DNA from: a virus
Length of the DNA: 64,000 nt
IMG/VR virus record: IMGVR_UViG_3300048915_000089
Location: 1 to 64,000 of that record
Reading direction: 5' to 3' (one strand)
In this document: piece after piece, positions 34,690 through 61,572 of the stretch
Numbering within the stretch: position 1 is the stretch's first letter
Layout of the letters: every line of letters starts with the position of its first letter
Made by a program: the position numbers and the translations under genes
The notes under the pieces: generated by a model
Databases searched by the model: none
Told to the model about the DNA's origin: nothing
The model's input: the letters and a program-made list of their open reading frames with translations, nothing else

Positions 34690-34718
34690 CCCCGCCTTCA
34701 GGCGGGGTTTTTCTTTTT
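34690..34718 (+). terminator. Rho-independent terminator of plus block iii
   Basis: CCCCGCC (34690-34696), loop TTCA, GGCGGGG (34701-34707), then TTTTTCTTTTT. The loop contains the stop codon of the convergent ParB-MTase gene. Confidence 0.7.
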
Positions 34719-36230
34719 GAAGATCACGATCACTTCGCCGTCCTCGCTCAGCGTCTTGTTGTAATTGTTAATCATGCCGGTGCCGCGCGTCTCGGCATAT
34801 TCGAGGCCGCATGTACCGGCGATCTCTTTCGCCGTCGACTCCAATGGATGCGTTTGATTGCCGATCTGCAACGCGAAGCTCGCGCTTGGCTTCAGCGCTC
34901 GCGCTACCGATTGGATCATCGGCGCATAAAATCCAGCCACCCATTTGTCGAAGTCCGGATAGAGCTTCCACGAACTCTCGTCGCCGCCGTACTTCTCAGT
35001 GTTGAAATACGGCGGGCTCGTCATGGCGAAATCGATCGATGCCGATTTCGGCTTGGCGCGTTCGAACGGCTCGCAAACAAGCTGAGCCGTCTTGTCGAAT
35101 GCGGCCAGCTTGCGGAGATCGCGGTACATGTCGTTAACGCCGCGATACGTCTTCGGGTCAACGTCATATCCGGTGTAGTGGCTCACGTTCTTTGCGAGCA
35201 GGAAGCCGAGCATGCGGCCGCCCCACCCATGGCACGGATCAAGCACGCTCGCGCCTGGCGTCGTGCAGAACTCGTCGTAAAGCGAGCGCGCGAGATCAAC
35301 TGGAAACTCACCCGGCAATCTGTGCCGATGAATCGCGAGCGTTTGGCCAAGCATCTTGTCCAGCTTCGGCTGGCCTTGGCATAGGAACATGAGCGACTTG
35401 ATAAACTCGTCGCGCCGGCCGCACGTCGCCAGAAAGTCGCTGAGCGACCCTTGCGTGTCGCCGTTGATGTCGACGCGGTGCGGCGTATAGGCCAGGGTGG
35501 CGGCAGACGGAATGCTGTTGCCGTAGAATCGCGCGCGCAGAAAGTAAACGGCGAGCGCGCCCTTCGTGTAGCTCGTCGAAACGAAGCCGAGAGACTCGCG
35601 CTTCGCCAAGATCCCGGTCCACTCTTTTGTCATCACTCGCCAGGCGCTCAGCAACACCGCCAGTTCGGCTTCGGTGAGATCGCGATCCTGTGCGCCGTCA
35701 CCGCCGGCCGGCGCTTGCGCCGTCTTGCCGTCGCCAAGGCCGGAGACGAATTCAACAAGTTCAAGCTCCGGAAAGCCGAGCAAGTCGAGATCGAAATTCA
35801 GCTTCTTCAATTCGACGACTTGGCCCTTCAAGATCGCTTCGTCCCATCCGGCCGTCAACGCGATCTGATTATCGGCGATCACGATCGCCATCTTGTCGGC
35901 GTCGGACAAGCCGGCGCGAACGACGACAGGCACTTCGTCGAGCCCGAGCAACATCGCCGCTTCGGCGCGGCCGTGACCGGCGAGAATCATATCGTGCTCG
36001 TCAATCAACATCGGCTGGGTGAAGCCGAATGTCTTGATAAGCTTCGCGAGCGTTTCGATCTGCGCTTGATCGTGCGTCCGCGGGTTGTTCGGATACGGTT
36101 TTAGCTCTGAGAGTTTGCGCCGCTCAGTCGGCCCCGCCATCCAGATCGCGAGGGACTTCGCGCCGTCCGACCACTCCGCAGTTTGAATCTGCACGGCTTT
36201 ACTTTTTGCAGCTTTGTCGGCTGAAGGCAT
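34698..36230 (-). CDS. ParB N-terminal domain fused to SAM-dependent DNA methyltransferase (N6-A/N4-C type)
   Basis: ParB segment LKPYPNNPRTHDQAQIETLAKLIKTFGFTQPMLIDEHDMILAGHGR. MTase motif I VLDPCHGWGGR and motif IV AMTSPPYFN. Confidence 0.85.
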   Translation of the reverse strand: MPSADKAAKSKAVQIQTAEWSDGAKSLAIWMAGPTERRKLSELKPYPNNPRTHDQAQIETLAKLIKTFGFTQPMLIDEHDMILAGHGRAEAAMLLGLDEVPVVVRAGLSDADKMAIVIADNQIALTAGWDEAILKGQVVELKKLNFDLDLLGFPELELVEFVSGLGDGKTAQAPAGGDGAQDRDLTEAELAVLLSAWRVMTKEWTGILAKRESLGFVSTSYTKGALAVYFLRARFYGNSIPSAATLAYTPHRVDINGDTQGSLSDFLATCGRRDEFIKSLMFLCQGQPKLDKMLGQTLAIHRHRLPGEFPVDLARSLYDEFCTTPGASVLDPCHGWGGRMLGFLLAKNVSHYTGYDVDPKTYRGVNDMYRDLRKLAAFDKTAQLVCEPFERAKPKSASIDFAMTSPPYFNTEKYGGDESSWKLYPDFDKWVAGFYAPMIQSVARALKPSASFALQIGNQTHPLESTAKEIAGTCGLEYAETRGTGMINNYNKTLSEDGEVIVIFKKKNPA

Positions 36231-38296: not shown

Positions 38297-38719
38297 TCAG
38301 CCCTGCGGCTGATCGGCGCCCTTGCTGGCGTCCGTGTTCGCCGGGGTAGCAGCCTGCAACTGCACGGCCGTATCGTGCAGATCGGCCGTCGCCTGGGTGA
38401 GCGCGGCGAGGTCTTCAGCACTGGACGTGCCGGCGTTGACCTTGTTCTGCAGTTCGTTCGCCTGCTGTTTGAGGGTGGCCGTCTGGCCGACAAGCTGCTG
38501 AAGAGCAGCGGCGGAAGCTTGCGCAATCGACTTCATATTCTTGACTTCGTCGATCATCGCCTGTGCCTGTGCGGAAATCATATCTAGCTTCTCCTGGGTT
38601 TCTTTGTGTTGACGGGATTGCTCGCGGCCGTTCGACTCGACGAGGGCTTTGAGCTCTTCAATCGATGCATGCGCGCGATCGTGGTGTCTACTCAAAAAGT
38701 CGAAGACTGAGAATTTCAT
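38297..38719 (-). CDS. Coiled-coil protein
   Basis: ATGA overlap with the GIY-YIG stop. Gln/Ala-rich heptad-like sequence. Confidence 0.55.
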   Translation of the reverse strand: MKFSVFDFLSRHHDRAHASIEELKALVESNGREQSRQHKETQEKLDMISAQAQAMIDEVKNMKSIAQASAAALQQLVGQTATLKQQANELQNKVNAGTSSAEDLAALTQATADLHDTAVQLQAATPANTDASKGADQPQG

Positions 38720-39033
38720 CGCACGCCTCCATCGATTGTTACTGCGCACGGCGCGGGCCGGCGCTTTGTTTGCGGATTACAGATCGGGCACAGCGGCCTG
38801 GCGCTACGGCCCTTTAGCCTGTTCTCATACTTGCGAGGGACGCCAAGCCATACCCTGGCCAGCTTTAGCTCACTTCCGGCGTTGACTGCGGCGCGGCACA
38901 ACACAGCGCCGCGCCCTGTTCTATGCTCTTCGATACGCTCGTCAACATCGTTGCGCGTCGTGTAACCGATATAGTGCGCCGCGTGCTTATACGCCGGTTC
39001 AATGTGAATCAGGTAAACGTTGCTCCCGCTCAC
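38716..39033 (-). CDS. GIY-YIG nuclease domain protein
   Basis: VYLIHIEP...HYIGYTTRNDVDERIEEHRTGRGA...ENRLK plus C-terminal CPICN. GTGA overlap upstream. Confidence 0.7.
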   Translation of the reverse strand: MSGSNVYLIHIEPAYKHAAHYIGYTTRNDVDERIEEHRTGRGAVLCRAAVNAGSELKLARVWLGVPRKYENRLKGRSARPLCPICNPQTKRRPAPCAVTIDGGVR

Positions 39034-44420: not shown

Positions 44421-44486
44421 TCCGCAATCTAAGCCATTGAAAAAGGCGATGTTTCGCCGCGTTCGGCCGTTTCGCGTCGAAGCCGC

Positions 44487-45167
44487 TCAGCAGTCGCGCC
44501 AGCGCTGCGCTACCGCTTCACGGCCGCTCCGGAGCTCAGCGACGCGATTGCAGCGCGTCCGACGTATTCGGAGAAGGCTGGCGGAATCGCTTGCGTGAGA
44601 GCTTCCCACGGCATCCAATCGATACCCCATCGCCGCCTGGCCTTCGGCGAGCGATCTTGCCCGCAGCACGCGCTCAGTCGCGCCGCCCGAGTGACTGCCG
44701 TAGACGCCGATCGGCCGGATACCGTGCCGGCATGGAACCGGGTCAATCGGGAACGTCGTTTCGAACTTCCGATGTCGCCAAACGCGCAAGCCGAACGACG
44801 AGCCGCACAGGACAACCGGATTGAGCAGCGGCGCGTGCATCACGTTTTCGATCACATACGGCACGCGCGCCGCGCGCAGCATCTCGCGCACCGGCTCAAT
44901 CAGCTTCGGGTGTTCTTTTCGCTTCGTCGGGAACAGGGTAAACCCAATGTACGCCTGACACGGCGGCGACGCCCAAACTAGGTCAAATTTGCGGAGCTCG
45001 TCACGGTCAATCTGCAGTGCGTCGCGCAGCACAAACTTGAACGGATAATGCGGCTGCGCAACTTTGTCGACGCCGACGACTTCGAAGCCAGCGCGCGCGA
45101 GACCAACGGCGACACCGCCAGCGCCACAGAACAAGTCGAGAGCTCTAAATCTTCTTTTGCGCATCAC
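44487..45167 (-). pseudogene. DNA (cytosine-5)-methyltransferase with frameshifted 3' end
   Basis: Motif I DLFCGAGG, motif IV SPPCQ, motif VI ENV. After ...AEGQAAMG the conserved continuation IDWMPWEALTQAIPPAFSEYVGR is in the other frame (ORF 44510-44815). The switch point is the C4 run at 44625-44628 (G4 in gene sense). Confidence 0.75.
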
Positions 45168-45321
45168 TGTTGCCGCGATCGTCCATAAAATCTTTCACGG
45201 CGTCCTCGAGCTCCATAAGAGCCGACGCGCAGCCTTGGTCATAAACCCAATCGACGGCCGCCTTCACAACGCGCTCGCGTTGCGCTTGGCGATCAATCGG
45301 TGCAGGCACAGTCGCCATCAT
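45145..45321 (-). CDS. Hypothetical small protein
   Basis: Start at MMATVPAPI. Overlaps both neighbours by about 25 nt. Confidence 0.4.
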   Translation of the reverse strand: MMATVPAPIDRQAQRERVVKAAVDWVYDQGCASALMELEDAVKDFMDDRGNSDAQKKI

Positions 45322-46156
45322 CTTCTTCGCCTTCGTCAAGATCAAAGTCGCCCTGCCGATCGATAACATCGAGCATCGCCGAATAGCTTGGCCGATCGGC
45401 ACGGAAGAGGGCCATTTCGGGAGCGCGCATTGTGCCGCGAGCTACCGCTTCGACTTCTTGCTTTGCCCACCAACAACCCGACTGCGGGCGTCGGCGCAGA
45501 AGACCCATGATCGTCGCTTTCGCTTTCAAAAAACACAGATCGCAATTACCCTCCGGCGTGCGGCCCCTGACATTCTCTAGCCGCAAGTCGAAATTCTGTT
45601 CACGCCAGAAATCCGAAACGGTTTGCTTCGTCGCCCTGGCCAGATCGAGCGGCATAATTGTTCGCCACAGATCCTTGCCGGCCGCATTTCGTTTCAGTTG
45701 TTTCTTAACGCGATGCTGCTCGTCATGCCGCAAGCCAACGACGCTCTGCCAATGCTGCCAGCCGAGATGGTGGACGGCGTACTCTCTGAAGCGTCTAATC
45801 TTTAGTTCGATTGTGCAGAACCTCATCACCGGGTTCGGGAGCATTTGTTTCGCGCGCAGCAACGCTTCGAACGGCTCGCCATTGCGGCTTGCGGTTTTGT
45901 AAGACACGATCGCCGTTCTTTGCGGCGCGTCCGGAGAGTATTCCAGCCAAACGATCTCAACGCCCCATCGCTCAGAAACCTCGTTAACGAAGTCGAGCGA
46001 CTCGCTGCGCTCCTTTCCGGTGTTGGCAAACACGACAACGATGTTCGCCGGCAACGTGCCGCGGTGCGCGTTGATGATTTGCTTCAGCAAGTAGCCGGAC
46101 GTTCTGCCTCCGCTGAAGCTTATCAGCGCAGGCCCTTCGAACAGGTATGGGTTCAT
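45293..46156 (-). CDS. PAPS-reductase-like PP-loop ATP pyrophosphatase (phage 'PAPS reductase'/DndC-like family)
   Basis: PP-loop ISFSGGRTSGYL, RFCTIELKI, GNCDLCFLK. ATGA overlap with the upstream MTase stop. Confidence 0.8.
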   Translation of the reverse strand: MNPYLFEGPALISFSGGRTSGYLLKQIINAHRGTLPANIVVVFANTGKERSESLDFVNEVSERWGVEIVWLEYSPDAPQRTAIVSYKTASRNGEPFEALLRAKQMLPNPVMRFCTIELKIRRFREYAVHHLGWQHWQSVVGLRHDEQHRVKKQLKRNAAGKDLWRTIMPLDLARATKQTVSDFWREQNFDLRLENVRGRTPEGNCDLCFLKAKATIMGLLRRRPQSGCWWAKQEVEAVARGTMRAPEMALFRADRPSYSAMLDVIDRQGDFDLDEGEEDDGDCACTD

Positions 46157-47157
46157 CTTCGCTTCCCAAGCCGACGCCGCGCCATGCGGCAGTATTCCGC
46201 GTTGATGTCAATGCCGATGCAATCGCGCCCGAGTTCGTTCGCGACGACGCCCGTCGTTCCGGAGCCGAAGAACGGATCAATCACCAAGCCGCCGCGCGGA
46301 CATCCGGCGAGTATCATCGGACGAATCAAAGCGGGCGGATAAGTCGCGAAGTGAGCGCCGTTGAATCCCGTCGTCGGCACGGTCCAAACCGATCGCGGAT
46401 GGCGCATTTCACGGATTGCGCGGAACGACTGTTCCGGATCGATCGGCCGGCGTTGCACAACGCCGCGCTTGCCGCCGCGCGTGCCCTTGGCTTCTTCAGC
46501 CCACCCGCAGCCAGGCGCGTACTTCGCCGGCTCTTTGATCGCGTCCATGTCATAGTAGTAATGCGGGGACTTCGAAAACACGTAAACGGTTTCGTGTGCT
46601 GGCGTTGTCCGATCGCGCGCGCTCGATGGTGTTGGGTTCGACTTTTTCCAGATAATCTCGTCGCGCAGAAACCAGCCTGCGGCTTGTAAGGCCAGCGCGA
46701 GCCGCGCCGGAATGAGCAAGCGTTGCTTTAGCCGATACGAATCGCCGATGACAATCCACAAAGTGCCGTCGTCGCGCAACACGCGATAAGCGCCAGCGAA
46801 CACGTCGACGAGCTCACTCACGTATTCGTCTGGCGCTTCTTCCATTCCGATCTGAGTATTGACGGCGACAGCATCGCAGCGCCGGCAACGACCTTGCGGC
46901 CGTAGCCACTGCGCAGCGGCGCCTTGGCGTTGATGCTTGCCGGAGCCGGTCAAGCTGCTGCCTATCTCGCGCGCTTTGTACCAGCGTTCGTCTGGCCGAT
47001 GATCGCAGTCCGGCCGGCCGCCGACCCATTTCGACGTCCCATAATCACGCTTGCGGAAGTAGGGCGGCGAAGTCATGAACATGTGCGCCGTCCGCGGTGC
47101 CAACCTGCGGAGCTCTTTGCGACTGTCGCCAGTGATAATCTCGCAGCCCACGGTCAT
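46153..47157 (-). CDS. Beta-class DNA methyltransferase (N6-adenine or N4-cytosine) with Cys-containing insertion
   Basis: Motif IV MTSPPYF near the N-terminus, motif I VIDPFFGSGTTGVVA near the C-terminus. Insertion CDHRPD...RCRRCDA...QIGMEEAPDEYV. Confidence 0.85.
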   Translation of the reverse strand: MTVGCEIITGDSRKELRRLAPRTAHMFMTSPPYFRKRDYGTSKWVGGRPDCDHRPDERWYKAREIGSSLTGSGKHQRQGAAAQWLRPQGRCRRCDAVAVNTQIGMEEAPDEYVSELVDVFAGAYRVLRDDGTLWIVIGDSYRLKQRLLIPARLALALQAAGWFLRDEIIWKKSNPTPSSARDRTTPAHETVYVFSKSPHYYYDMDAIKEPAKYAPGCGWAEEAKGTRGGKRGVVQRRPIDPEQSFRAIREMRHPRSVWTVPTTGFNGAHFATYPPALIRPMILAGCPRGGLVIDPFFGSGTTGVVANELGRDCIGIDINAEYCRMARRRLGKRR

Positions 47158-47372
47158 TTCGTCCGGAAGCCCCGCTTGATCTCAGAGAGCGGCACACCGT
47201 TGATGATCGCCAGCACGGCGCGTATCTCGCAACAAACGCCAGGCTCGTGAGCCGTGCCCTTCGTCGTCTTCACCAACTGCATTGTTGCTGCGCGCAGATT
47301 CGGCGCAAAGCCGATCGCGATCAGCGCAGCCTCAATCATCTCGTCTGTCGGCTCGGGGTCAACAATCATCAT
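47154..47372 (-). CDS. Hypothetical small protein
   Basis: ATGA overlaps on both sides. Confidence 0.45.
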   Translation of the reverse strand: MMIVDPEPTDEMIEAALIAIGFAPNLRAATMQLVKTTKGTAHEPGVCCEIRAVLAIINGVPLSEIKRGFRTK

Positions 47373-50123: not shown

Positions 50124-52586
50124 TCAAAAAACCGTATCAGGTATGTCGCTGTCGCCGCCGTCAACGTCCGGCGGCAACTCGCGATCGTCAAGCAACGGCG
50201 CTGGCGCTTCCGGCTTCTCGGCTTTGCCTTGGCGCGGTGGCCAACTGAGGCCGCGGCCAAAGACGCGCTTGCCGAGAGGCCAGATCACGTCGACCGGCTC
50301 AGCGCCCTCAGTGAGAACAACCTTGTCGCCCGCGATTATGTTCGCCGCCATCAACATACGACGCCAGCGGCCGACTCGGCTCTTGAACGAAGCCGCGCGC
50401 TTCTCCGGCGTGTCGCCAAGCTCTTCGTTCGGCGTCACGCGTCGATAATGCGCGCGGACATCGGACCACTTCACAATTCGAGAGACGGACGGCGGAAGCT
50501 TCATGCTCGCCGGCGGAATGATCGCTTCTTCGTCAAGAGCCTTGAGGAAGGCGCGGAAGATCGTCGCATTGATCTCAGTCAACGCGAAGCCTTCCGGACG
50601 CTTGCCGTCCGTGCCGACCTTATCCAGCGCTTCGGCTGTCATGATATGAGGCTCAACAGTGACGCATGACGTAACAGGATCGCCGTCCGAGTCTTTGTTG
50701 ACTTCGACTTGCTTCAGAACGAAGTCCCAATAGTTGCCGGCGATGCCTTCGCTTTGCTTGCGCACCTTGGCGCGTCGGATCACGCGGCGATCGTCGTCAA
50801 GCAATTCGGTCGCGTTTTTTCCGTCGCTGTTCATGCGCGCGCCGATCTCTATCGTCGTCTCGATCGCATTCCATAAAACGAGACTGCCGCGAATCGTGCC
50901 GTGCGCATTCTTGTGATGAACAAACCACACGCCGGCGCCGGTGCGGTCCATTATTCGCTGCGCGCGCCGGTACATCGTTGTGACATCTTCGTCTTTGATG
51001 ATCGATGCGCCAGGCGTCGCGGCTTGATACGTGTCGAGTGCGACGACGCCAAGCGGCACGGGCCAATCTGCCGAGAGCGCTTCAATCTCTTCGATCAACG
51101 TGTCTGTCGTTTTGTCTTCGGACCACAGATCAAGCGACTTCGTGAGAACGGCAAAGGGAATATCGTTAGTGTTCCGCAGATCGTTGTGCTTGTCATAAGC
51201 GCGCATGCGCGTGACGAACGCTTCGCCTTTCTCCGCTGCGCAATAAATGACGCCAAGCTGCTGAGTCTTGTTGCCGGCAAACGGAATGCCGCGCGCGACA
51301 GCCATCGCCATGTCGTAAGTCTCGAATGATTTTCCGGACTGGCTTTCGCCGTATATCAGCACGGACTTTCCGCGCGGAATGATACCTTTGATAGCCCAAT
51401 CGTAAGCACGGACTGTGCCGGCATACCGATCGCGCCAGTGAACAGCGCCGAACTTCGATTTGTAGGGCTCCGGCTTCCACTCCGGAAGCTTGTCGACATG
51501 CGCCAGAAGACTGAAGCGATCGCCGCCGCCAAGATCCCGCCAGTCTTTCACGTCGCCGCGCGGCGGGCACTGCGGCCACACGCTCGCGAAGTTCAAGACG
51601 CGCACCCTGGCCCCGGCCTTGCGCAGCATCGGCGCGATTCTCGCCGTGCGTTGCTTACCGGCCGGATCGTTGTCCTCGAGAATCACAAGATCAGCAGCGC
51701 CCCGGAAAAACTCAGCGCACTCGACTGTGAAATTGTTCGCGCCGCCTGTGCCGCTGGCGGCGAGCAGCCCCCAACTCGTCAAGATATCGACTTTGCCTTC
51801 ACCCTCCGGCAAGAAGATCGTCCGCTGATCTGCCGCGTCTTCGCGCAACTCGTCGGCGATCTCGTCGGCATTGTAGAGCCAATAGTCGACGTTGCCGACG
51901 CCGGGGAACGTCCGGCGCTCCTTCCACTTCCATTTGACGAAGTTCTCTTGATCGAAGCGAGTCCAGTCTGTGCCTGGCCCCTTGCGCATGAACTCTTTCG
52001 GCTTGCTTGTCTCGCGATCAACGAAGTCGAGTCCCATCACCCAAGTGCCGTCGCCGTCCGGCGATCGGCGACGTTGCCAAAACGTTTTCCATATCTTGCC
52101 GGTCTTTGGATTGATCTCCCACGATCCATCCGGAAGCTCGCGCTGCACGCGCGCGACTTGATACAGAAACACGCCGCCTTTTTTAATCTCGAATGTCTCG
52201 ACTATTTTGTTCCTTGCGAATGCCGGCCGATCATGCGGCGCGTCGTCAAGGGGCGGCTCGTCTCGCGCTGCCTTTGCTTTCACCGGCTTGCCGCCCGGAA
52301 GCGGAATGCCGGCGCGCTGAGCCAACACTTCGACAGCCTCTTTGAAATCAGCGCAGCCGCCATGCTGCATTTCGAAGTCGAAGATATCACCGCCAGCGTC
52401 GTCTTTGCCGAAGTCGTGCCAGATACCCTTCTTGTCGTTCACGCTGATCGATGGGTCTTCGACAGCAACGAACTCAGCGCCGCGCTTCTTCAGCTTGAAC
52501 TTACGACCCACAACGTCACTCACCTTGAGCGCGCCGCGAACCTGATCTAAAAATGCTTTGTCGTAAGTCACTGCGTTTCCTGCCAA
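50124..52586 (-). CDS. Bifunctional DNA primase (DnaG-like ZBD + Toprim) / RepA-DnaB-like helicase
   Basis: Toprim IFLPEGEGKVD and LEDNDPAGKQ. Walker A VLIYGESQSGKS. The N-terminal primase zinc-binding-domain-like region lacks cysteines. Confidence 0.85.
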   Translation of the reverse strand: MAGNAVTYDKAFLDQVRGALKVSDVVGRKFKLKKRGAEFVAVEDPSISVNDKKGIWHDFGKDDAGGDIFDFEMQHGGCADFKEAVEVLAQRAGIPLPGGKPVKAKAARDEPPLDDAPHDRPAFARNKIVETFEIKKGGVFLYQVARVQRELPDGSWEINPKTGKIWKTFWQRRRSPDGDGTWVMGLDFVDRETSKPKEFMRKGPGTDWTRFDQENFVKWKWKERRTFPGVGNVDYWLYNADEIADELREDAADQRTIFLPEGEGKVDILTSWGLLAASGTGGANNFTVECAEFFRGAADLVILEDNDPAGKQRTARIAPMLRKAGARVRVLNFASVWPQCPPRGDVKDWRDLGGGDRFSLLAHVDKLPEWKPEPYKSKFGAVHWRDRYAGTVRAYDWAIKGIIPRGKSVLIYGESQSGKSFETYDMAMAVARGIPFAGNKTQQLGVIYCAAEKGEAFVTRMRAYDKHNDLRNTNDIPFAVLTKSLDLWSEDKTTDTLIEEIEALSADWPVPLGVVALDTYQAATPGASIIKDEDVTTMYRRAQRIMDRTGAGVWFVHHKNAHGTIRGSLVLWNAIETTIEIGARMNSDGKNATELLDDDRRVIRRAKVRKQSEGIAGNYWDFVLKQVEVNKDSDGDPVTSCVTVEPHIMTAEALDKVGTDGKRPEGFALTEINATIFRAFLKALDEEAIIPPASMKLPPSVSRIVKWSDVRAHYRRVTPNEELGDTPEKRAASFKSRVGRWRRMLMAANIIAGDKVVLTEGAEPVDVIWPLGKRVFGRGLSWPPRQGKAEKPEAPAPLLDDRELPPDVDGGDSDIPDTVF

Positions 52587-52592
52587 CGGCTT

Positions 52593-53189
52593 TTATGCCG
52601 CCTTGTCGAATTTCGCTATCTCGTCACCCCACGCAAGCCAGCCACGCCGACTCTCTCTGCTAAATACATCTGCGCGCCGCCATCCGGGCGTCAATCCACC
52701 AATCAAGTCGAACCACTCTTGCGGCTTGCGCGAATGCTCGCGCGCGATGCCGTCAAGGCCAAGCTGATCGAATGTCTCAATGAGATTGTAAGCGCGTCCG
52801 CGAGCTCGCAGCTTGTGGCCCTTCAGCGTACAGATCAAAAACGGCTCGCACACCGACCTGAAAATAAACCCGGTGCCTGGCCGAAGCTTGCCGGTCACCG
52901 TGCGCTTTGCCCACGCGCCGCCTGTGACGACTTTCAAGCCCCATGCATTCTCCGCAATCAAATGCTGCTGCCCGATCAGCGGCCATGTACACCACATGCC
53001 GAGGACGCCTTCCGGCGCGAGCAGTTCGGCAACCGGCAGCGCCGCGATCTGCGCGAGCGACATCGTTTTATATTTTGCGTTCGCCGACTTCTTCTCGCCC
53101 TGCGATGTACGCGAGACCCATTTCCAGGGACAATCGATCGATACAAAGTCCAAGCCGTATCGCGGCAACGGATCAAAATAAAACATCAA
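52593..53189 (-). CDS. MT-A70 family N6-adenine DNA methyltransferase
   Basis: Catalytic motif DCPW (DPPW variant), KYKTMSLAQIAALPV, MWCTWP, AWGLKVVTGGAWAK. Confidence 0.8.
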   Translation of the reverse strand: MMFYFDPLPRYGLDFVSIDCPWKWVSRTSQGEKKSANAKYKTMSLAQIAALPVAELLAPEGVLGMWCTWPLIGQQHLIAENAWGLKVVTGGAWAKRTVTGKLRPGTGFIFRSVCEPFLICTLKGHKLRARGRAYNLIETFDQLGLDGIAREHSRKPQEWFDLIGGLTPGWRRADVFSRESRRGWLAWGDEIAKFDKAA

Positions 53190-54626: not shown

Positions 54627-55147
54627 TTTAGATCCTCGCAAAAGAATGTTGACCGAACCCAGCGAGTCAGAGGGCCTTCGTTCCCGCTGGGTCCGGCCGT
54701 TATCCGCAACCCTTGCCTGGCGGCACGGCGCGAATGCGAATTCTGTTTTGTCAAAGATCGGCCCTCTCTGAGTCGTGAACGTAAACGACAACAGCAGGGC
54801 GGAGCAATGGGAGAAATTTTCAAGTTCCAGATCGCTGAGCGCGCTCGCGCGCGTCTCAGTTATATACACAGAAAGAAGTCGCGCGTGCCGCGCTCCTTTT
54901 GTGTCTGGCCGCACACTGTAACGCCGCGCGCGAGCCGACTCGATAGAAACCCGCAAAAGGGCTGTCAACGGATACGGGAGACAGAACAAAGCGGATACAG
55001 ATACATCCTGAGAGCGTTCTTATTGAAAAAACAGCAGAATCCCGGCGTTCCGATTTATTTCTAAGGCTTGCAACCATTCAACCTGTGATCTATACGTCTT
55101 GCCAGGCGGGCCGCTTCGGCCGCGCCGTTTTGCAGAGGAAAGATGCA
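54627..55147. promoter_or_regulatory. Divergent early control region (~520 bp, non-coding)
   Basis: Contains an imperfect inverted repeat GAGTCAGAGGGCC (~54664) / GGCCCTCTCTGAGTC (~54760). Also a palindrome CTGAGCGCGC..GCGCGTCTCAG (~54835-54860), AT-rich TTATATACAC, and three GATACA-type repeats (54970-55008) like those at 44371-44420. Confidence 0.5.
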
Positions 55148-56032
55148 ATGCACACCATCAATCAGACTTACGGAAAACGCGCGCGCTTCGACATCGATCG
55201 CGGTATGACCGAAGACGAGATTCGCAAGGCCGCGCCGTCTGTCTTCGCCGTGACGGCGCACGACAGCCGCAGCGAACGCTTCCAGCCGATCCCGACGATC
55301 GAAGTGCTGCGCGGCTTGCGGAAGGAAGGCTTTGAAGTCGTCGGCGCGCGCCAGTCGACGACGCGAGTCGACGGCAAAGAGAACTTCACGAAGCATCTGA
55401 TACGTCTCCGGCGCATGGATAACGTCGAAGCGTACAAGGTCGGCGATACGGTCGCCGAAATGCTGCTGAAGAATGCGAACGACGGCACGTCCGTTTACGA
55501 TCTCTTCGCCGGACTGTTCCGCATTCGTTGCTTGAACAGCATGGTGACCGATCTCGGCTCAATCGACAGCGTGAAAGTCCGGCACACTGGCCGCGACATT
55601 CAGGATCGTGTCATTGAAGGCACGTTCACTGTCATGGAAAAGGCGAAGCTCGCGCTCGCCGCTCCGCAGGACTGGTCAACTGTCGAATTGAACCGCGACG
55701 AACGCATGGCGTTCGCGGAAGCCGCACACGTTCTCCGCTTTGCCGACGCCGAAGGCAACGTCGACACGCCAATCAAGCCGGAGCAACTGCTGCAGGTGCG
55801 CCGCGCTGATGATAACGAGCGCAATCTCTGGACTGACTTCAATGTCGTTCAAGAGAACGTCATTCGCGGCGGGCTGAAGGGCCGCGTTCCGGCGACGGGT
55901 GGCGGAACGCGCCGCATGTCGACTCGCGGCATCAACGGCATTGACCAAGACGTGCGCTTGAACAAAGCGCTTTGGGTGCTTGGCCAGCGGATGGCCGCGC
56001 TGAAGGGTGTCGAAGTCAAGACTGCCGCCTAA
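55148..56032 (+). CDS. DUF932 domain protein
   Basis: ATG preceded by AGAGGAAAGA. FQPIPTIEVLRGLRKEGFEVV... pattern and ~295 aa size are typical of DUF932. Confidence 0.65.
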   Translation: MHTINQTYGKRARFDIDRGMTEDEIRKAAPSVFAVTAHDSRSERFQPIPTIEVLRGLRKEGFEVVGARQSTTRVDGKENFTKHLIRLRRMDNVEAYKVGDTVAEMLLKNANDGTSVYDLFAGLFRIRCLNSMVTDLGSIDSVKVRHTGRDIQDRVIEGTFTVMEKAKLALAAPQDWSTVELNRDERMAFAEAAHVLRFADAEGNVDTPIKPEQLLQVRRADDNERNLWTDFNVVQENVIRGGLKGRVPATGGGTRRMSTRGINGIDQDVRLNKALWVLGQRMAALKGVEVKTAA

Positions 56033-56128
56033 GTTCGAAGGTCGGCGACTCGATGGGGCCGCGTATTGCGCCGCCCCATCAGGGCGCTGATCTTGGCCGC
56101 GCCGCCGAACTTAGGAGAACCAAAGCGC

Positions 56129-56647
56129 ATGAACATTCTGTATTACGGGGTGCCCGCCTACGCTGAAGGCGGGCACATTGTGGTTCGCTTCATGGATCGA
56201 AGCGACGCAAAAGACATGGGGACCGATCTGCCGCTTCGCGACGATCTCGCGCAGCATGCGGAGCGCTTCGATTGGGGCAAGCCGATGATTGCCGGCAGAG
56301 AATCGAAGGCGCTCACGGCCGGAGCCGCGCAACTGGCGCTGGCGATCTGCGCTCACGCTCTCGCCAACGATCGCCGCGCGCTGGCGCTGTTCCAGCGCTT
56401 CAAGCATCGCGTTGTCACAAAGTGGAAAGTCGGCGAAGCGTGGGCTGTCACAGCCGACGAGGTCGCGGCGACGTGCGATCTGATCGAAGCCGAGCAGCTT
56501 TCGCCGTCCGAACTCGGCAAGATCGTGAAAGACGGCGAAGCTGAAGCGCGGCAAGTTGAGCACGAGACGGGCCGCGGTGTTGAGCGCGAGATCGTCTGGG
56601 ATACTGACGAGGGCGGCAACAGAATACGGCCAAGGGGTGCGGACTGA
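56129..56647 (+). CDS. Hypothetical protein (DUF6166-like pattern)
   Basis: RBS AGGAGAA. FDWG...GAAQLALAICAHALANDRRALALFQRFKHRVV recalls the DUF6166 family (recollection). Confidence 0.45.
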   Translation: MNILYYGVPAYAEGGHIVVRFMDRSDAKDMGTDLPLRDDLAQHAERFDWGKPMIAGRESKALTAGAAQLALAICAHALANDRRALALFQRFKHRVVTKWKVGEAWAVTADEVAATCDLIEAEQLSPSELGKIVKDGEAEARQVEHETGRGVEREIVWDTDEGGNRIRPRGAD

Positions 56648-56889
56648 TGAGCCGGGGAGTCGTCGAAAGCATCCGTAGGCTACGCGAGAAGCGAGAAGAG
56701 CGCCGCGACGCAATGCGCGAGCTCGCACGAACGGACAAACCCGCTGCGATTGAGCAGCTTCAAAAGGCGGTAAAGACCGCATCACGCAAGAAAGGAAAGC
56801 AACGTGGCAAAAAAGCAGCAAGACGAGCTCAAAAAACTAAGCGACGAAGCGAACGCAATGGCGGCGTCGACAAGTCTGATACGGACTGA
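56647..56889 (+). CDS. Hypothetical basic protein
   Basis: TGATG coupling. 3' end overlaps the next ORF by 86 nt. Confidence 0.35.
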   Translation: MSRGVVESIRRLREKREERRDAMRELARTDKPAAIEQLQKAVKTASRKKGKQRGKKAARRAQKTKRRSERNGGVDKSDTD

Positions 56890-56986
56890 AGAAGGCCGCG
56901 CGCTGATCGCGCTGAATCAGCGGCTCATTGAAGTGCTGTTGCACGGCGAGCCGAAGACGAAGCCGGTGAGCCGCAATCATGCGTGA
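56804..56986 (+). CDS. Hypothetical protein
   Basis: GTG start preceded by GAAAGGAAAG. Confidence 0.4.
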   Translation: MAKKQQDELKKLSDEANAMAASTSLIRTEEGRALIALNQRLIEVLLHGEPKTKPVSRNHA

Positions 56987-57110
56987 GCTTCTGACGATCG
57001 CCCGCGACGAGCTTCGGCTTGTCGCGGCAACGCCCCTGCAATCATTGATCGCCTATGCTGCGCTCGCGCTCATAGCCGCTGTTGCGTTTGGATTTTTGCC
57101 ATCGAATTGA
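56979..57110 (+). CDS. 43-aa ORF with C-terminal TM helix (not in ORF track)
   Basis: Hand translation gives MRELLTIARDELRLVAATPLQSLIAYAALALIAAVAFGFLPSN. Overlaps the previous stop. Confidence 0.3.
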   Translation: MRELLTIARDELRLVAATPLQSLIAYAALALIAAVAFGFLPSN

Positions 57111-57145
57111 ATTCACCATCAACCCGTCAAACTGGAGGAAAGACA

Positions 57146-58426
57146 GTGAAAGACAAGGTAGACGTCAACCCCGACAATGCGAAGTTCATTGAGCTTCGCA
57201 CGACGAATTATAAAAAGGTAAAGGCGTTTCGCGTTCGGCCGGACGGTGCCGGCGTCATCAAGATTATCGGCGACAACGATCAAGGCAAGACGAGCGCGAT
57301 CGAATCGCTCGCCGCCGTACTTGGCGGGCCGGACTTCACGCCGAAGAACCCCATCCGCAAAGGCCAGAACGAAGCCGAAGTGTTTGCCGATCTCGGCGTG
57401 CTGCGCGCTACTCGCACATGGAAGCGGCGCGAAGACAAGACGATCGCGATGACTCTCGCGGTTGAATTCGCCGACGGATCAAAGCCGAGCAAAAAGCAGA
57501 GTGTGCTTGACGAGCTTCGCGGCACTGATCTTGCGGCCGACCCGTTGGAATTCGCCTACATGCCGGCGAAAGCGCAGTTCGATATTCTGAAGGCGCTTGT
57601 GCCAGGCATCGATTTTGACGACGTGGCGCGCAGGCGTAAGGAGCTTTTCGACGACAGGACGCAAGCTGGCCGCGATCGCGATCGCGAAAAAGGCGCCGCC
57701 GACGCAATCGTTGTGCCGCAAGGCACGCCGCTGCAGCTTGTCGAGTCGACGGCGCTCGTCGCGCAGATAAGTGCTGGCGCAAACATGAACACGGCGATCG
57801 ATCGTGAGCGCGAACGGCGCGCGGCTGTCGAAGCTTCGGCCGAAGCCAAACTGAACGAAGCCGACGAATTGATGATACGCGCGCGCACCCTGGAAGCTGA
57901 AGCGAAACGCTTACGCGACAGCTTGGCCAGTCTGCCGCCGTTAGGAACGCCGGTTGATCTCTCCGAACTCGAGGAGAGAATCGCGAACGCCGACGCGACA
58001 AACGAAAACGTTCGGTTGCTGCAGCGTCAGGATGCGCATCGAGCCGCCGCGAAGGATGCGAGCCGCATATACGACGATCTGACAAGGCAGATCGAAGAGC
58101 TTGACGCGGCAAAAAACAAAGCGATTGAACAAGCGAAATTGCCGGTCAAGGGCATGTCGTTTGGCGACGACGAGATACTAATGAACGGCGAGCCGTTCAC
58201 CGAAGCGTCGCAAGCGCAAAAGATCATGGTGTCGATGGCTGTCGCGATGGCGCTGAAGCCGAAGCTTCGCGTGATCTCAATCAAAGATGGCTCGCTCCTA
58301 GATGCGAAGAGCATGAAGATCGTCGCCGAGATGGCCGTCAAAAACGACTTCGTTGTTTTGCTTGAACGCGTCGCCGTTGATGGCGAGCGCGACGGCATCA
58401 TTATCGAAAATGGGGAGATGGTTTGA
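57146..58426 (+). CDS. SMC/Rad50/RecF-like AAA ATPase (recombination/repair type)
   Basis: GTG at 57146 preceded by GGAGGAAAGA. Walker A GDNDQGKTS, long central coiled coil, C-terminal LRVISIKDGSLLD (Walker B/D-loop). Confidence 0.75.
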   Translation: MKDKVDVNPDNAKFIELRTTNYKKVKAFRVRPDGAGVIKIIGDNDQGKTSAIESLAAVLGGPDFTPKNPIRKGQNEAEVFADLGVLRATRTWKRREDKTIAMTLAVEFADGSKPSKKQSVLDELRGTDLAADPLEFAYMPAKAQFDILKALVPGIDFDDVARRRKELFDDRTQAGRDRDREKGAADAIVVPQGTPLQLVESTALVAQISAGANMNTAIDRERERRAAVEASAEAKLNEADELMIRARTLEAEAKRLRDSLASLPPLGTPVDLSELEERIANADATNENVRLLQRQDAHRAAAKDASRIYDDLTRQIEELDAAKNKAIEQAKLPVKGMSFGDDEILMNGEPFTEASQAQKIMVSMAVAMALKPKLRVISIKDGSLLDAKSMKIVAEMAVKNDFVVLLERVAVDGERDGIIIENGEMV

Positions 58427-58608
58427 TGGCTGACGCTGTACACCTTTTGGTATTGACGGCTCACACGGCAAAAACTGGTTGCGGCAAAACCGTCGTCGCG
58501 CACTACCCGCAGTCCGGTCAAGCAATGGTTGTCGGCGAGTCGGACAACATCAAAGTTACAATGGAGCCCAGCGAGGTGTCCGGATGCCATCTCTGCAAGC
58601 GCAGTTGA
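58423..58608 (+). CDS. Hypothetical small protein
   Basis: TGATG coupling. Confidence 0.4.
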   Translation: MMADAVHLLVLTAHTAKTGCGKTVVAHYPQSGQAMVVGESDNIKVTMEPSEVSGCHLCKRS

Positions 58609-58853
58609 CGAGCGAGCTTCGCCGGCTCGCGATCGTCGCGTCTACCACAACGCCTGGGCTGCGATGCCGCGTATGCGGCTCGCGATGGCCGTTCGCTACA
58701 CCGCACGGCCCCAAGCTTGAACAGCACACTTCCGATTGTCTTATCAGAGAGAGCTCGCCAGATGTCAAAGCAACCCGCAGGAAAGTTTCACCTATACCCC
58801 ACAGACGCGCCGTTTCTCGAAAGGATACCGGGACGATTCCGGCGAGCGCTTGA
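58584..58853 (+). CDS. Possible small Zn-finger protein
   Basis: Contains CRVCGSRW...H...H..C. Overlaps both neighbours; the tail looks non-coding. Confidence 0.3.
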   Translation: MPSLQAQLTSELRRLAIVASTTTPGLRCRVCGSRWPFATPHGPKLEQHTSDCLIRESSPDVKATRRKVSPIPHRRAVSRKDTGTIPASA

Positions 58854-59022
58854 AGCGATCGATGCGGACGGCCTCAGTTATGTCGACGCCGCGAAGAAAC
58901 TGACGGACGCCGGACGCGGCGTTGTTCACGTCGGCACGGTCAAGAGCCGCGTTCACCGCGCGCGCATGCGCATTCTGGCGATGCGCGAAGCTACTGCAGC
59001 GACGGAAGGGGCGAAGCCATGA
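58762..59022 (+). CDS. Sigma-70 region-4-only (ECF sigma r4.2 HTH-like) protein
   Basis: LERIPGRFRRALEAIDADGLSYVDAAKKL...GTVKSRVHRARMRIL is the canonical region 4 signature. No region 2 is present. Confidence 0.6.
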   Translation: MSKQPAGKFHLYPTDAPFLERIPGRFRRALEAIDADGLSYVDAAKKLTDAGRGVVHVGTVKSRVHRARMRILAMREATAATEGAKP

Positions 59023-59573
59023 ACAGCGAAGTCCCTGAAGAGCTCATTCCGCATTGGGCAGAGCGCCGATCGGATGGCAACTATTTGCAGCGCCGTGCCG
59101 TGCTTCCGACGCGCGACGGCCGCAGGAACGGCAACGCGACTGTGCGGAGCATTGATCGCGTGCCTGGCGTTGGCTTCGTCGCCAATTGCGAGACGGACGC
59201 TGGCAACAAAATGCGACTTTCGCTGAGAGAGATGCGCGAATTATTTTACCCTCCGGAGTGGATAAGGGCAGAGCCGGAGCCGCTGAAGCCGGGCGAGTGG
59301 TACGCGAACGGCTCGCTTCTGTTCACTGACGGCGCTGTCGTGATGGAAGCCGGTAGCGCGGCGCAAGCTGCTCAGATCGCCGCGCGCTGGAACGCGTGGC
59401 CTAGTCTAATTCAGCTTTTGAGGGATGCTCTTCCGGAGATCGAAAACGAAGCGGAAATGCGCGGCGAAGGCATCGCCGGGATCGATACGCCTTACCACAC
59501 TGTCATGGGCGAGCTCGTCGCGCGTTTCCGCGCCGCGCTGCTAGAGGCTGAAAGGGTGCGAGATGGCCGATAA
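59019..59573 (+). CDS. Hypothetical protein
   Basis: ATGA overlap with the upstream stop. Confidence 0.5.
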   Translation: MNSEVPEELIPHWAERRSDGNYLQRRAVLPTRDGRRNGNATVRSIDRVPGVGFVANCETDAGNKMRLSLREMRELFYPPEWIRAEPEPLKPGEWYANGSLLFTDGAVVMEAGSAAQAAQIAARWNAWPSLIQLLRDALPEIENEAEMRGEGIAGIDTPYHTVMGELVARFRAALLEAERVRDGR

Positions 59574-59745
59574 TGAAGACGACGCAACGGCTGCAGCTTT
59601 CGAGAGCTACATCAAAATGCGGTTTCCTCCGGACGATCGGCCGGAGAAAGACAGCCCGCGATGGCGCGACTTGCGATCGGCGTTCATGGCCGGCGCTCGT
59701 TTCGGCGTCGAAGCGATGGTTGAAGGTTGCACCGACCATGGCTGA
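59563..59745 (+). CDS. Hypothetical small acidic protein
   Basis: Overlapping start and stop with both neighbours. Confidence 0.45.
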   Translation: MADNEDDATAAAFESYIKMRFPPDDRPEKDSPRWRDLRSAFMAGARFGVEAMVEGCTDHG

Positions 59746-59956
59746 GCTCACAGAAACCGAATTGCGCCGCGCCAAAGACTTCGCGGACGCAATAGCCGAT
59801 CTGATCGGCGCTGAGCACCCGAGCATGCAACTGACGGTCCTTACGTTGGTTGCCGGCTCAGTCCTTTGCGCCAGCGTTTTTTCCGAGGACCGGCTTCCGG
59901 CTCTCGAAAAACATACGGATTATCTGCGCAAAAAGATTATGGAGAGCTTGGGGTGA
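59738..59956 (+). CDS. Hypothetical small protein
   Basis: ATG at 59738 overlapping the previous stop. Confidence 0.5.
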   Translation: MAELTETELRRAKDFADAIADLIGAEHPSMQLTVLTLVAGSVLCASVFSEDRLPALEKHTDYLRKKIMESLG

Positions 59957-60798
59957 AAAAGCGCGACGTGATCTTGAACACTGAAGCACACCGGCCGGCG
60001 TTCAATTCGTTCGCTGAGCACCTTGACGCTATTGAGCGCCGCGAGGGACTTCGGCCTGGCGAGATACTGAATCAGTGGCTTGAATTCTCTTATCGCGCTC
60101 AGCGCGCGGCGATCTTGAAGCTCGCCGGCAATGACGACGAGCTCGCCAAAAACGAAGCGGATTATATGCGCGGCGTCGCCAGACTCCGGCACAAGCAAGA
60201 GACAATGGCCGATTACGGATCAATGCTGGGCGCGCTTGTTCTGGCGCTCGAAGCCGACGACTGCGATTTTATCGGTCCCGTATTCTCAGCGCTGTCGGCG
60301 AGTGCTGGCATGGGGCAGTTCTTTACACCCTGGAGTCTATCGAAAGCGGCGGCAATGCTGATTATGCCGGAGTCGCGCGAAGCGTGCGCGGCACTCGCCG
60401 ACAGCGGCGCCCTATGGTGCCATGAGCCCGCGGCCGGCGTCGGCGGAATGATACTCGCGACAAATCAGATCCTTCGCGAACGCGGCTTCTCTCTGCACCG
60501 CGACGTTCATTGGATCGCTTTTGAAGTCGACTTCCGCGCAATGTGCGGCGCGTATCTGCAGTTAAATCTCACCGGCTCGTCTGCCGTCGTGACGCACGGC
60601 AATACGCTGTCGCTTGAAGCATGGCAGACGACGCCGACGCTTACGGCCGTTATGTATCCGAAGCGCAAGCCGGAGCGCGTCAAGCTTGAAATGGTCATTG
60701 AGTCGGCGAAACCCGAAGAGAGGATCGAACGTGGCAAAACGAGCGCAGTCAAAGTTTCCCGCGAAGTTCGTCGTCGTCAACGTGCGCCAGCCGGTTAA
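59953..60798 (+). CDS. HsdM/N6_Mtase-like SAM-binding protein lacking catalytic motif IV and any TRD
   Basis: GTGA overlap at the start. GQFFTPWSLSK (60313...), HEPAAGVGGM, AFEVDFRAMCGAYLQLNL and THGNTLS align with EcoKI HsdM. At the NPPF position the sequence is MYPKRK (60652...). The protein ends about 45 aa later. Confidence 0.65.
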   Translation: MKKRDVILNTEAHRPAFNSFAEHLDAIERREGLRPGEILNQWLEFSYRAQRAAILKLAGNDDELAKNEADYMRGVARLRHKQETMADYGSMLGALVLALEADDCDFIGPVFSALSASAGMGQFFTPWSLSKAAAMLIMPESREACAALADSGALWCHEPAAGVGGMILATNQILRERGFSLHRDVHWIAFEVDFRAMCGAYLQLNLTGSSAVVTHGNTLSLEAWQTTPTLTAVMYPKRKPERVKLEMVIESAKPEERIERGKTSAVKVSREVRRRQRAPAG

Positions 60799-61123
60799 GC
60801 GGCTAAAGAATGATGGCGACATTTGCCGCGTCTGCGGCTGCAGCGAGCACAACGCTTGCGAGCTCACAATGCGGCCGGCGAAGTGGCGCGGCGTCGGACA
60901 AATGATAAGCATCGGATGCTCTTGGGTGAGAAGGGAGCCGGATAGCCCGCCGCTTTGTTCGGCTTGCTCCGGCACCGCCGGCGATCTGCGCGAAGCATGC
61001 GCGCGCCTGGTCACGATTCTTGAAGATCACGCCGCCCATGACTTCGGGCGGTCCATAGCACGCGCCGCTGTGGCGCGCTTCGATAGGAGGAAGAAAGAAC
61101 ATGACCGGATCGCCGAAGCCTAA
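60731..61123 (+). CDS. Cys-rich (CxxCGC...C...C.W...CSAC) phage protein
   Basis: GTG at 60731 with RBS GAGAGGA. Contains CRVCGCSEHNAC...IGCSW...PLCSACS. Confidence 0.45.
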   Translation: MAKRAQSKFPAKFVVVNVRQPVKRLKNDGDICRVCGCSEHNACELTMRPAKWRGVGQMISIGCSWVRREPDSPPLCSACSGTAGDLREACARLVTILEDHAAHDFGRSIARAAVARFDRRKKEHDRIAEA

Positions 61124-61328
61124 AAAGGGATCGAAGGAGTACATCGGCGCGCAGATCAGAACGATTCGCGTGCTGAAGTCGAAGACGCAAGCTGAAGCCG
61201 GCGCTGTTCTCAACGTGTCGTGGCAACAGTTCGCGAAATACGAAACCGGCCGCAATCGCATCACGGCCGATGCAATCTGGAAACTCGCCAAGGCGTGGCG
61301 CTGTGCGCCTGGCGACTTCTTCGCGTGA
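61101..61328 (+). CDS. XRE-family HTH regulator (Cro-like, intact)
   Basis: RBS AGGAGGAAGAAAGAAC. IGAQIRTIRVLKSKTQAEAGAVLNVSWQQFAKYETGRNRI. Confidence 0.75.
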   Translation: MTGSPKPKKGSKEYIGAQIRTIRVLKSKTQAEAGAVLNVSWQQFAKYETGRNRITADAIWKLAKAWRCAPGDFFA

Positions 61329-61335
61329 GAAAGAA

Positions 61336-61572
61336 ATGGCAAGGCTCCCTGCCATTTTATTCCGCCGAAAGGTGTACGTGGGTGATCCGCGACATCTAGA
61401 CGCCATCAAAAAGGCGTTCGCTGGAATGTCTCACCATCAACAGCGTCGTATTAGCAACCGAATTGCGGACGGCAAAGAAAGCATGCTGTTCGGCTGGGTT
61501 GACGAAGGCGGCGAGTGGGAGCCGGAGCCGGAGTTTCAAGAGGCGCGCATGATTATGTATGGCTTCGAATAA
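61336..61572 (+). CDS. Hypothetical protein
   Basis: ATG at 61336 after the previous stop. Confidence 0.5.
   Translation: MARLPAILFRRKVYVGDPRHLDAIKKAFAGMSHHQQRRISNRIADGKESMLFGWVDEGGEWEPEPEFQEARMIMYGFE

Follow-up and report, generated by a model that had tools for sequence, protein, structure and literature searches.

We analysed a 64,000-nt stretch of viral DNA (positions 1 to 64,000 of IMG/VR record IMGVR_UViG_3300048915_000089), hereafter called the window, and concentrated on a packed minus-strand operon in which the gene for a PP-loop protein, of the type annotated in phages as 3'-phosphoadenosine 5'-phosphosulfate (PAPS) reductase, is flanked by genes for DNA methyltransferases. An earlier note on this DNA, made from the sequence alone, had proposed that the PP-loop gene and the methyltransferase gene coupled to it form a candidate module for non-canonical DNA modification. 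Gene calls were cross-checked on an identical public contig (L082); they agree with the open reading frames (ORFs) of the operon and add two genes, of 58 and 215 amino acids (aa). In gene order, the operon consists of the following features.

47154..47372, minus strand: ORF of 72 aa, function unassigned (ORF listing, gene call in L082).
46153..47157, minus strand: beta-class N6-adenine/N4-cytosine DNA methyltransferase of 334 aa (PF01555, phrog_67, PADLOC MTase_II).
45293..46156, minus strand: NinC-family, SspD-like PP-loop protein of 287 aa (phrog_424, PADLOC SspD, alignments, AlphaFold2 (AF2) model).
45145..45321, minus strand: conserved 58-aa ORF, with a 29-nt overlap with the 3' end of the PP-loop gene (gene call in L082).
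44487..45134/45167, minus strand: short C5-cytosine methyltransferase-like gene, 215-226 aa (partial PF00145, phrog_363, gene call of 215 aa).
44445..44458, minus strand: weak terminator-like hairpin and T-run just past the C5-like gene (possible operon end, weak).

Two of the junctions are ATGA stop/start overlaps: the methyltransferase stop and the PP-loop gene start share positions 46153-46156, and the 72-aa ORF stop and the methyltransferase start share positions 47154-47157. Both are real, because the plus strand reads TCAT at both sites in the raw sequence. A GGGAAG ribosome-binding site lies 5 nt upstream of the PP-loop gene ATG. The layout given in the earlier note, with these two overlaps, a small ORF and a C5-methyltransferase-like gene downstream (45145-45321 and 44487-45134/45167), and the PP-loop gene placed between two methyltransferases in one operon, was thus accurate. 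The hairpin at the distal end is weak evidence because a promoter and terminator scan of the region found such sites no more often than expected from shuffled sequence.

On the evidence of its sequence, the PP-loop protein belongs to the lambda NinC (phrog_424) family of phages and plasmids. It matches phrog_424 over residues 7-285 (E=4.5e-44) and has homologues in at least 7,794 clusters at E<1e-5, so the gene is not a chance ORF. A tblastn search of GenBank phages returned 262 records, including NinC-annotated genes of lambda-like and P22-like phages, gp007 of phage Chi, and a gene of Vibrio phage 44E38.1 labelled 'Dam methyltransferase with PAPS reductase domain' (E=8e-16, residues 11-268). 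We verified that the product of this last gene, p0018, is a fusion with PF01507 at the N-terminus and PF05869 (Dam) at the C-terminus; between the PP-loop domain of this fusion and lambda NinC the identity is 59%. In Pfam, as the earlier note had suggested checking, only PF01507 (PAPS_reduct) matched the window protein, and did so marginally (23.8 bits against a cut-off of 22.5); no NCBIfam family was significant, and a search of PDB sequences with the protein alone or with a profile of its close homologues gave nothing significant.

The closest sequenced relatives of the PP-loop protein are alphaproteobacterial; they come from a proteobacterial metagenome-assembled genome (63%) and Bradyrhizobium denitrificans (60%), followed by prophages of Methylobacterium and Magnetospirillum. 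The NinC family is not phage-restricted, because it is common on plasmids: NinC-like genes occur on 261 plasmid records, of which 150 are conjugative and 138 are from Acinetobacter (A. baumannii plasmids of ~70-89 kb). In L093 (2024-2830, minus strand) and L094 (Methylobacterium-type prophage), a gene with SRA_ScoMcrA and HNH domains, an architecture typical of modification-dependent nucleases, lies two genes upstream of the NinC-like gene and overlaps a 366-aa call on the opposite strand.

We aligned the protein with 45 close homologues and with a wider set (the window protein, lambda NinC, Chi gp007, 44E38.1 p0018, a Burkholderia phage protein and four others), and the same residues are invariant in both alignments despite an identity of only 25-30% in the wide set. 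In the numbering of the window protein these are the PP-loop S15-G16-G17...S20, T46-G47-x-E49, C114, K119, R143-x-D145-E146-x-x-R149 and N204-C205-x-x-C208-x-x-K211, where C114, C205 and C208 make up a triad of cysteines; near the C-terminus, the pair C283-x-C285 (DCACTD) is invariant as well. The consensus of this pair is C-x-C-[TH]-D in the close family, and lambda NinC has CSESCE. The motifs SFSGGRTSG, RFCTIELK and GNCDLCF, which the earlier note had read as a phage 'PAPS reductase' signature, are all found in the translation. The AF2 model has a mean predicted local distance difference test (pLDDT) of 91.2, falling below 50 in an acidic disordered linker (residues 272-282) that precedes the cysteine pair. 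With Foldseek, the nearest solved folds are CysH and adenosine 5'-phosphosulfate (APS) reductase (E ~3e-5) and the Fe-S/sulfur-transfer PP-loop enzymes TtuA, LarE and NcsA; because TM-scores are only 0.4-0.5, the likeness covers the shared PP-loop core alone. A fold search of BFVD returned no more than 'PAPS reductase' labels.

Such genes are often annotated, and in some papers treated, as auxiliary metabolic genes for a genuine PAPS/APS reductase that would raise sulfate assimilation during infection. The marginal PF01507 match, the fold core shared with CysH and APS reductase, the cysteine triad at APS-reductase-like positions and the cysteine-bearing, flexible C-terminal tail all agree with this, yet we consider it very unlikely. 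The CysH and APS-reductase equivalogs score only 12-16 bits against cut-offs of 154-235 (12.3 against 154 for PRK02090, 15.6 against 235.3 for TIGR02055), and where the PP-loop protein has a canonical ATP-binding SGGxxS, the CysH and APS-reductase sequences of the PDB have a degenerate SSSFG or SFSGAED. The protein lacks the ECGLH motif and ends in ...GDCACTD. The early anti-restriction context of the gene, and the fusion to Dam in one phage, also argue against an assimilatory CysH or APS reductase, which we reject. The earlier note had likewise set sulfur assimilation aside and had seen no ECGLH motif in the C-terminus; this was correct, with the nuance that the disordered acidic tail does carry an invariant cysteine pair.

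The Foldseek matches to TtuA, NcsA and LarE are as good as those to CysH, which would be in line with an enzyme that modifies RNA (tRNA), a nucleotide or a cofactor, in the manner of TtuA, NcsA, TtcA, LarE or QueC, and so tunes translation or nucleotide pools. In phage Chi (L087 3379-3840), a gene for nucleoside 2-deoxyribosyltransferase follows the NinC-like gene and ThyX is near, a nucleotide-metabolism context unlike that of the window. This explanation is nonetheless improbable: the TM-scores reflect the PP-loop core alone, there is no significant match to the TilS, QueC or TtcA models (membership of TilS and QueC was rejected), and the linked genes encode DNA methyltransferases and not RNA-modification enzymes. 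The sequence and motif architecture fit another protein, SspD, much better.

Among defined cellular proteins, SspD is the closest relative of the PP-loop protein as judged by profile and pairwise comparison. The PADLOC SspD model (PDLC02782) matches residues 12-226 with E=2e-16. As reference SspD we took the proteins of two complete plasmid ssp clusters, each made up of genes for a cysteine desulfurase, a DUF4007 protein, an ATPase of ~1,100 aa and a 278-279-aa 'PAPS reductase family protein', and followed in one of them by helicase, ATPase and PLD genes (FGH-like). The window protein is 27% identical to the reference by BLASTP (E=5e-13), and profile-profile alignment with hhalign gives a probability of 99.05% (E=2e-18). 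In an all-against-all BLASTP comparison the NinC clades score 71-114 bits among themselves and 39-54 bits to SspD. Because the NinC clades are closer to each other, we regard NinC as a sister family of SspD residing on phages and plasmids, and not as an Ssp component. The only solved structure that significantly matches a joint NinC and SspD profile is chain C of PDB 21fy ('PptA', 270 aa), which does so over nearly its full length (E=1.4e-12) and matches SspD directly with E=1.4e-7; the C...K and CxxC positions are kept in this protein, and its PP-loop is degenerate (FSCGAPS).

The methyltransferase encoded upstream (46153-47157) covers positions 2-220 of the 221 of the PF01555 profile (E=6.4e-51) and also matches phrog_67 (E=1.6e-64) and PADLOC MTase_II (E=2.5e-80). 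It is circularly permuted, with motif IV (TSPPYF, residues ~28-33) before motif I (DPFFGSGTTG, near residue 300), and carries a Cys-rich insertion of ~70 aa between the two. We take the SPPY form of motif IV to suggest N4-cytosine specificity. The CcrM equivalog was ruled out for this protein (97.8 bits against a cut-off of 830). The C5-like gene carries the motifs FCGAGG, PPCQ and ENV and matches phrog_363 (E=1.1e-29) and, over residues 7-73 only, the N-terminal motifs of PF00145 (E=1.6e-9); no match to the C-terminal half of PF00145 was detectable, and the product may be a minimal or split enzyme.

Between the PP-loop gene and the C5-like gene, whose 215-aa version begins 11 nt beyond it, lies the 58-aa ORF with the core motif RER..AA..W..D..C..AL.ELE. 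Homologues sit at the same overlapping position in the related prophages L003, L084 and L093 (phmmer E 1e-7 to 1e-11) and in 8 of the 80 loci from species-representative genomes that we surveyed along with 80 IMG/VR loci. This ORF has no match in Pfam, PHROG or PADLOC, and a sulfur carrier was rejected because it lacks a C-terminal GG and any family match. At the other end of the operon, the 72-aa ORF has no Pfam or PHROG match.

In these two sets, methyltransferases were searched for with iterated hidden Markov models seeded with the methyltransferases at hand. Of the viral loci, 17/80 have one within 500 bp of the NinC-like gene, or 10/56 once dereplicated; of the genome loci, 28/80 do, or 9/46 clusters. 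The density of methyltransferases in the viral loci is 2.2-2.6 per 10 kb within 500 bp and 0.11-0.16 beyond 3 kb; in the genome loci it is 5.4 against 0.04-0.09. Overall, the local enrichment around NinC-like genes is 15- to 50-fold. The gap between the methyltransferase and the PP-loop gene is mostly 0-12 nt. By Pfam, the immediate upstream neighbours in the viral set are methyltransferases (~13/78), primases or helicases (~8-14), RusA (3) and PD-(D/E)XK proteins (3), and the downstream ones methyltransferases (~3/73), DUF3310 (5) and NinB (2). The linked enzymes belong to at least four unrelated families, C5, N6/N4, MT-A70 and Dam (PF00145, PF01555, PF05063, PF05869). Linkage to methyltransferases is therefore real and strong, but it concerns ~20% of independent lineages, and in the five closest relatives examined no methyltransferase lies within 3.5-4 kb of the PP-loop gene. 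On plasmid CP049030 (L096 1-363, minus strand), a gene for a 'DNA phosphorothioation-associated putative methyltransferase' adjoins sspA in a complete ssp cluster, so that methyltransferase linkage is also seen in cellular phosphorothioation systems.

These counts, from the kind of neighbourhood survey that the earlier note had called for, bear on its proposal of a methyltransferase/PP-loop module. In its strict form, the proposal would mean a self-sufficient pathway of two enzymes, the PP-loop protein and the methyltransferase, possibly joined by the 58-aa protein, which would produce a non-canonical DNA modification, the methyltransferase supplying either sequence recognition or a methylated intermediate. 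The ATGA coupling of the two genes, the NinC-Dam fusion in Vibrio phages, the methyltransferase genes that adjoin NinC in Vibrio phage 1.184.A and in Salmonella phage Oslo, and the strong, distance-dependent enrichment of methyltransferases all speak for it. However, an adjacent methyltransferase is missing in ~80% of lineages, among them the five closest relatives that we examined, lambda NinC stands alone, and the partners come from unrelated families, for which the co-location of genes with analogous roles is a better fit than a fixed pathway. We thus consider such a pathway unlikely and reject the module as obligate; what stands of the proposal is a statistical linkage across the family, together with one fusion protein. 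The pattern is that of genes with analogous roles gathered in an anti-restriction islet and occasionally fused; an obligate two-step pathway fits it less well.

What such a role could be is indicated by the literature. In DNA phosphorothioation, the PP-loop subunit that acts as ATP pyrophosphatase and transfers sulfur is DndC or SspD (PMC10853773, PMC12707154, PMC12914056). Phage PAPS reductases have been described as predicted DndC/SspD homologues in anti-defence hotspots (PMC13551039, PMC10945359), and PADLOC 'SspD' matches are reported in Sinorhizobium prophages (PMC12429752). In Vibrio phage 44E38.1, the PAPS-domain/Dam fusion p0018, moved together with p0019 into a sister phage, enabled infection of a Dnd-carrying Vibrio (Piel et al., preprint 10.1101/2021.05.05.442762), a result cited in later papers as an anti-Dnd function (PMC13551039, PMC10945359). 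The picture in the earlier note of a phage clade without an assigned substrate is outdated in so far as this is the lambda NinC family, a close analogue of SspD, and a NinC-Dam fusion has been linked genetically to anti-Dnd activity; it still holds in that neither substrate nor reaction has been shown. Its suggestion of a role against host defence finds genetic support in p0018.

Most likely, the locus serves anti-restriction and is of a kind that is widespread and in part already characterised, not a new system. More specifically, and with a probability that we put at about 50%, the operon serves to mark or shield phage DNA against modification-dependent immunity, its methyltransferases being directed against restriction-modification and its NinC/SspD-like enzyme against phosphorothioate-based systems. 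Expressed early, the operon would make incoming or replicating phage DNA resemble host DNA, or blunt modification-based host immunity. The methyltransferases would act against classical restriction-modification systems, and the PP-loop protein would be a stand-alone phage version of SspD. We infer that its canonical SGGxxS loop is the site of ATP binding and that a [4Fe-4S] cluster is held on C114/C205/C208; the three invariant cysteines lie at APS-reductase/SspD-equivalent positions in the alignment, and the fold is similar to that of the [4Fe-4S] PP-loop sulfur transferases TtuA and NcsA. The C-terminal cysteine pair may receive sulfur, probably from host IscS, and the protein would then act on DNA or on the host phosphorothioation machinery in such a way that the phage escapes restriction by phosphorothioate-dependent defences (Dnd, Ssp, BREX type 4). 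Its most likely route would be to help place phosphorothioate marks on phage DNA with the ATPase and DNA-recognition subunits of the host. Lambda ninC is dispensable in the laboratory (PMC10695390), as is expected of an accessory counter-defence gene.

Several observations weigh against this explanation. The partners of a phosphorothioation system are missing from the neighbourhood: an SspB or SspC homologue lies within 10 kb in 0/80 genome loci, and these families are absent from the top neighbour Pfam families of the viral loci. Among the window ORFs scanned with PADLOC, none matched SspB, SspC or Dnd models, the other hits being methyltransferases and weak (E >= 5.8e-5), low-scoring matches on two ORFs; the flanks likewise showed no Dnd or Ssp gene. 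When the early ORFs were searched for SspB-, SspC- or DndD/E-like partners, only weak (E >= 3e-4), assorted defence-model matches appeared, on ORF 38297-38749, and these we take to be coiled-coil noise. NinC also occurs in phages of hosts that often have no phosphorothioation system, such as E. coli K-12. The putative Fe-S cluster is predicted from cysteine positions only. Besides the PAPS-reductase-like subunit, phosphorothioate synthesis requires an NTPase and a DNA-recognition partner, and isolates in which a PAPS-reductase-like gene stood alone had no phosphorothioate (PMC12914056). As two genes, one of them a fusion, were transferred in the Vibrio experiment, it does not prove that the PAPS domain by itself accounts for the anti-Dnd effect. 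In addition, the Dnd system of the Vibrio host is of the DndC type whereas the phage domain is of the SspD/NinC type, which makes a simple substitution of subunits not obvious. In one study, presence of the phage gene did not correlate with whether Dnd+ or Dnd- hosts were infected (PMC10945359), and no biochemical activity, substrate or reaction has been shown in the literature for any NinC-family protein.

The same lack of partner subunits is what would be expected if the PP-loop protein worked by binding and not by catalysis, as a decoy or dominant-negative mimic of host SspD or DndC that poisons the modification-restriction complex or soaks up persulfide. Its homology to the host subunit agrees with such a mimic, which would also be compatible with the anti-Dnd phenotype. 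On the other hand, although identity is only 25-30%, phages from lambda to those of alphaproteobacteria all keep the PP-loop, K119, RxDExxR and both the triad and the pair of cysteines unchanged, which argues for retained catalysis, and blocking host modification alone would not protect unmodified phage DNA. We hold a decoy to be the likeliest of the rival explanations, though still a doubtful one; it is followed by the methyltransferase-guided pathway, by thiolation of RNA or nucleotides and, last, by sulfate assimilation. A bolder version of the marking of phage DNA is conceivable but improbable: NinC enzymes might be the catalytic core of a minimal phage system for DNA sulfur marking (phosphorothioate or another thio-modification), in which the neighbouring or fused methyltransferase (and here possibly the 58-aa protein) replaces SspB/SspC or DndD/DndE in sequence choice. 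If so, the operon of the window would suffice by itself to write an epigenetic mark other than methylation on phage DNA.

The gene content of the window suggests that it holds most of a single tailed phage of temperate type, and no near-identical DNA was found among GenBank phages. Outside the operon we detected the following features.

34698..36230, minus strand: fusion of ParB_N and N6_N4 methyltransferase, 510 aa, not adjacent to the operon (PF02195 E=6.3e-8, PF01555 E=1.1e-9).
52593..53189, minus strand: DNA methyltransferase of the MT-A70 family, within the early leftward transcription unit that also holds the operon (PF05063 E=6.1e-21, PADLOC MTase_II E=1.1e-32).
26640-28313: Mu-type portal.
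25572-26639: Mu-F-like protein.
24394-25575: putative serine protease domain, Peptidase_S78_2, XkdF type.
4726-5523: endolysin-like PG-binding protein.
50124-52586: primase-helicase.
55085-56032, plus strand: DUF932, divergent operon.
56066-56647, plus strand: DUF6166, divergent operon.
57107-58426, plus strand: AAA_23/AAA_15 ATPase with weak LmuB/AriA-like matches, divergent operon.
59866-60798, plus strand: weak N6_Mtase-like ORF, divergent operon.
61654-62730, plus strand: DUF3799 PD-(D/E)XK protein, divergent operon.

The divergent operon thus spans 55085-62730 on the plus strand. Four methyltransferase genes are present in this one phage: PF01555, the short PF00145-like gene, the ParB_N-PF01555 fusion and MT-A70, the last lying directly downstream of the primase-helicase gene (50124-52586). 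The ParB_N fusion has the motif IV TSPPYF, and the same architecture is found directly downstream of a NinC-like gene in viral locus L001 (5831-7240). ARAGORN called a tRNA-Ala(CGC) at 29310-29394 on the plus strand, within and antisense to a 534-aa ORF (28317-29921), which is probably a false positive.

The earlier note had counted two ParB-domain fusion proteins and a ParB/KorB-like fragment in the window and had drawn from them an analogy with the IbrA/IbrB pair. One ParB_N-methyltransferase fusion (34698-36230) is there; a second fusion and the KorB-like fragment were not found in a non-exhaustive scan with Pfam on ~45 ORFs and with phmmer, using the ParB_N region, against all frames. The analogy itself fails: the PP-loop protein has no DUF3440, its neighbours are methyltransferases and small ORFs, and the sole ParB_N domain found, 9 kb distant, is part of a methyltransferase fusion, so IbrA was rejected.

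Few accessory genes that still lack an explanation are as common in phages and conjugative plasmids as those for NinC-type 'PAPS reductases', and their routine annotation as sulfur-metabolism genes is probably wrong. Three results, namely that these proteins are stand-alone SspD look-alikes with every catalytic residue kept, that their linkage to methyltransferases is strong but non-obligate and that they show no linkage to the other phosphorothioation subunits, lead to a directly testable question: whether phages write, copy or sabotage phosphorothioate marks so as to evade Dnd, Ssp and BREX type 4 immunity. The window locus contributes a clean, separate-gene example and no new principle, and its interest lies mostly at the level of the family.

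With respect to known systems, the PP-loop protein shares the PP-loop/PAPS-reductase-like superfamily with DndC and BrxP, both of which are much larger and multidomain. DndC is described as having a [4Fe-4S] cluster on three cysteines and a further cysteine dyad that is proposed as sulfur carrier (PMC10853773), the same logic as in the residues of the PP-loop protein. Membership of DndC was rejected, as no DndC model matched at E<=1 in NCBIfam or PADLOC and no dnd-like neighbour is present; BrxP matches at only E=5e-4, over the PP-loop (PADLOC). SspD is a nearer counterpart, of similar size (~280 aa) and with the PP-loop, TGxE, R[WF]CTxxLK, RADExxR, CxxC, the cysteine triad and a terminal cysteine pair in common (SspD ends in ...VCLACHK); it has all of the residues that are invariant in NinC. 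It differs in that strand 3 is followed in NinC by an insert of ~25-30 residues whereas SspD has one before the tail, and in that no sspA, sspB or sspC lies near the window PP-loop gene.

The lambda NinC family shares full-length homology and the identical set of invariant residues (SGGxxS, TGxE, C..K, RxDExxR, NCxxC and the C-terminal cysteine pair), as well as a location in the early or nin-type region near primase-helicase, NinB, RusA and PD-(D/E)XK genes. The window protein is ~25-29% identical to lambda NinC and belongs to an alphaproteobacterial subclade with a CxC tail (DCACTD) in place of the CxxxC (CSESCE) of lambda, and with its own conserved 58-aa downstream ORF. Finally, 44E38.1 p0018 shares with the window a homologous PP-loop domain, the same invariant residues and the physical coupling to a DNA methyltransferase; there the two are one polypeptide, whereas in the window each has its own gene, the order is reversed and the methyltransferase belongs to the PF01555 family.

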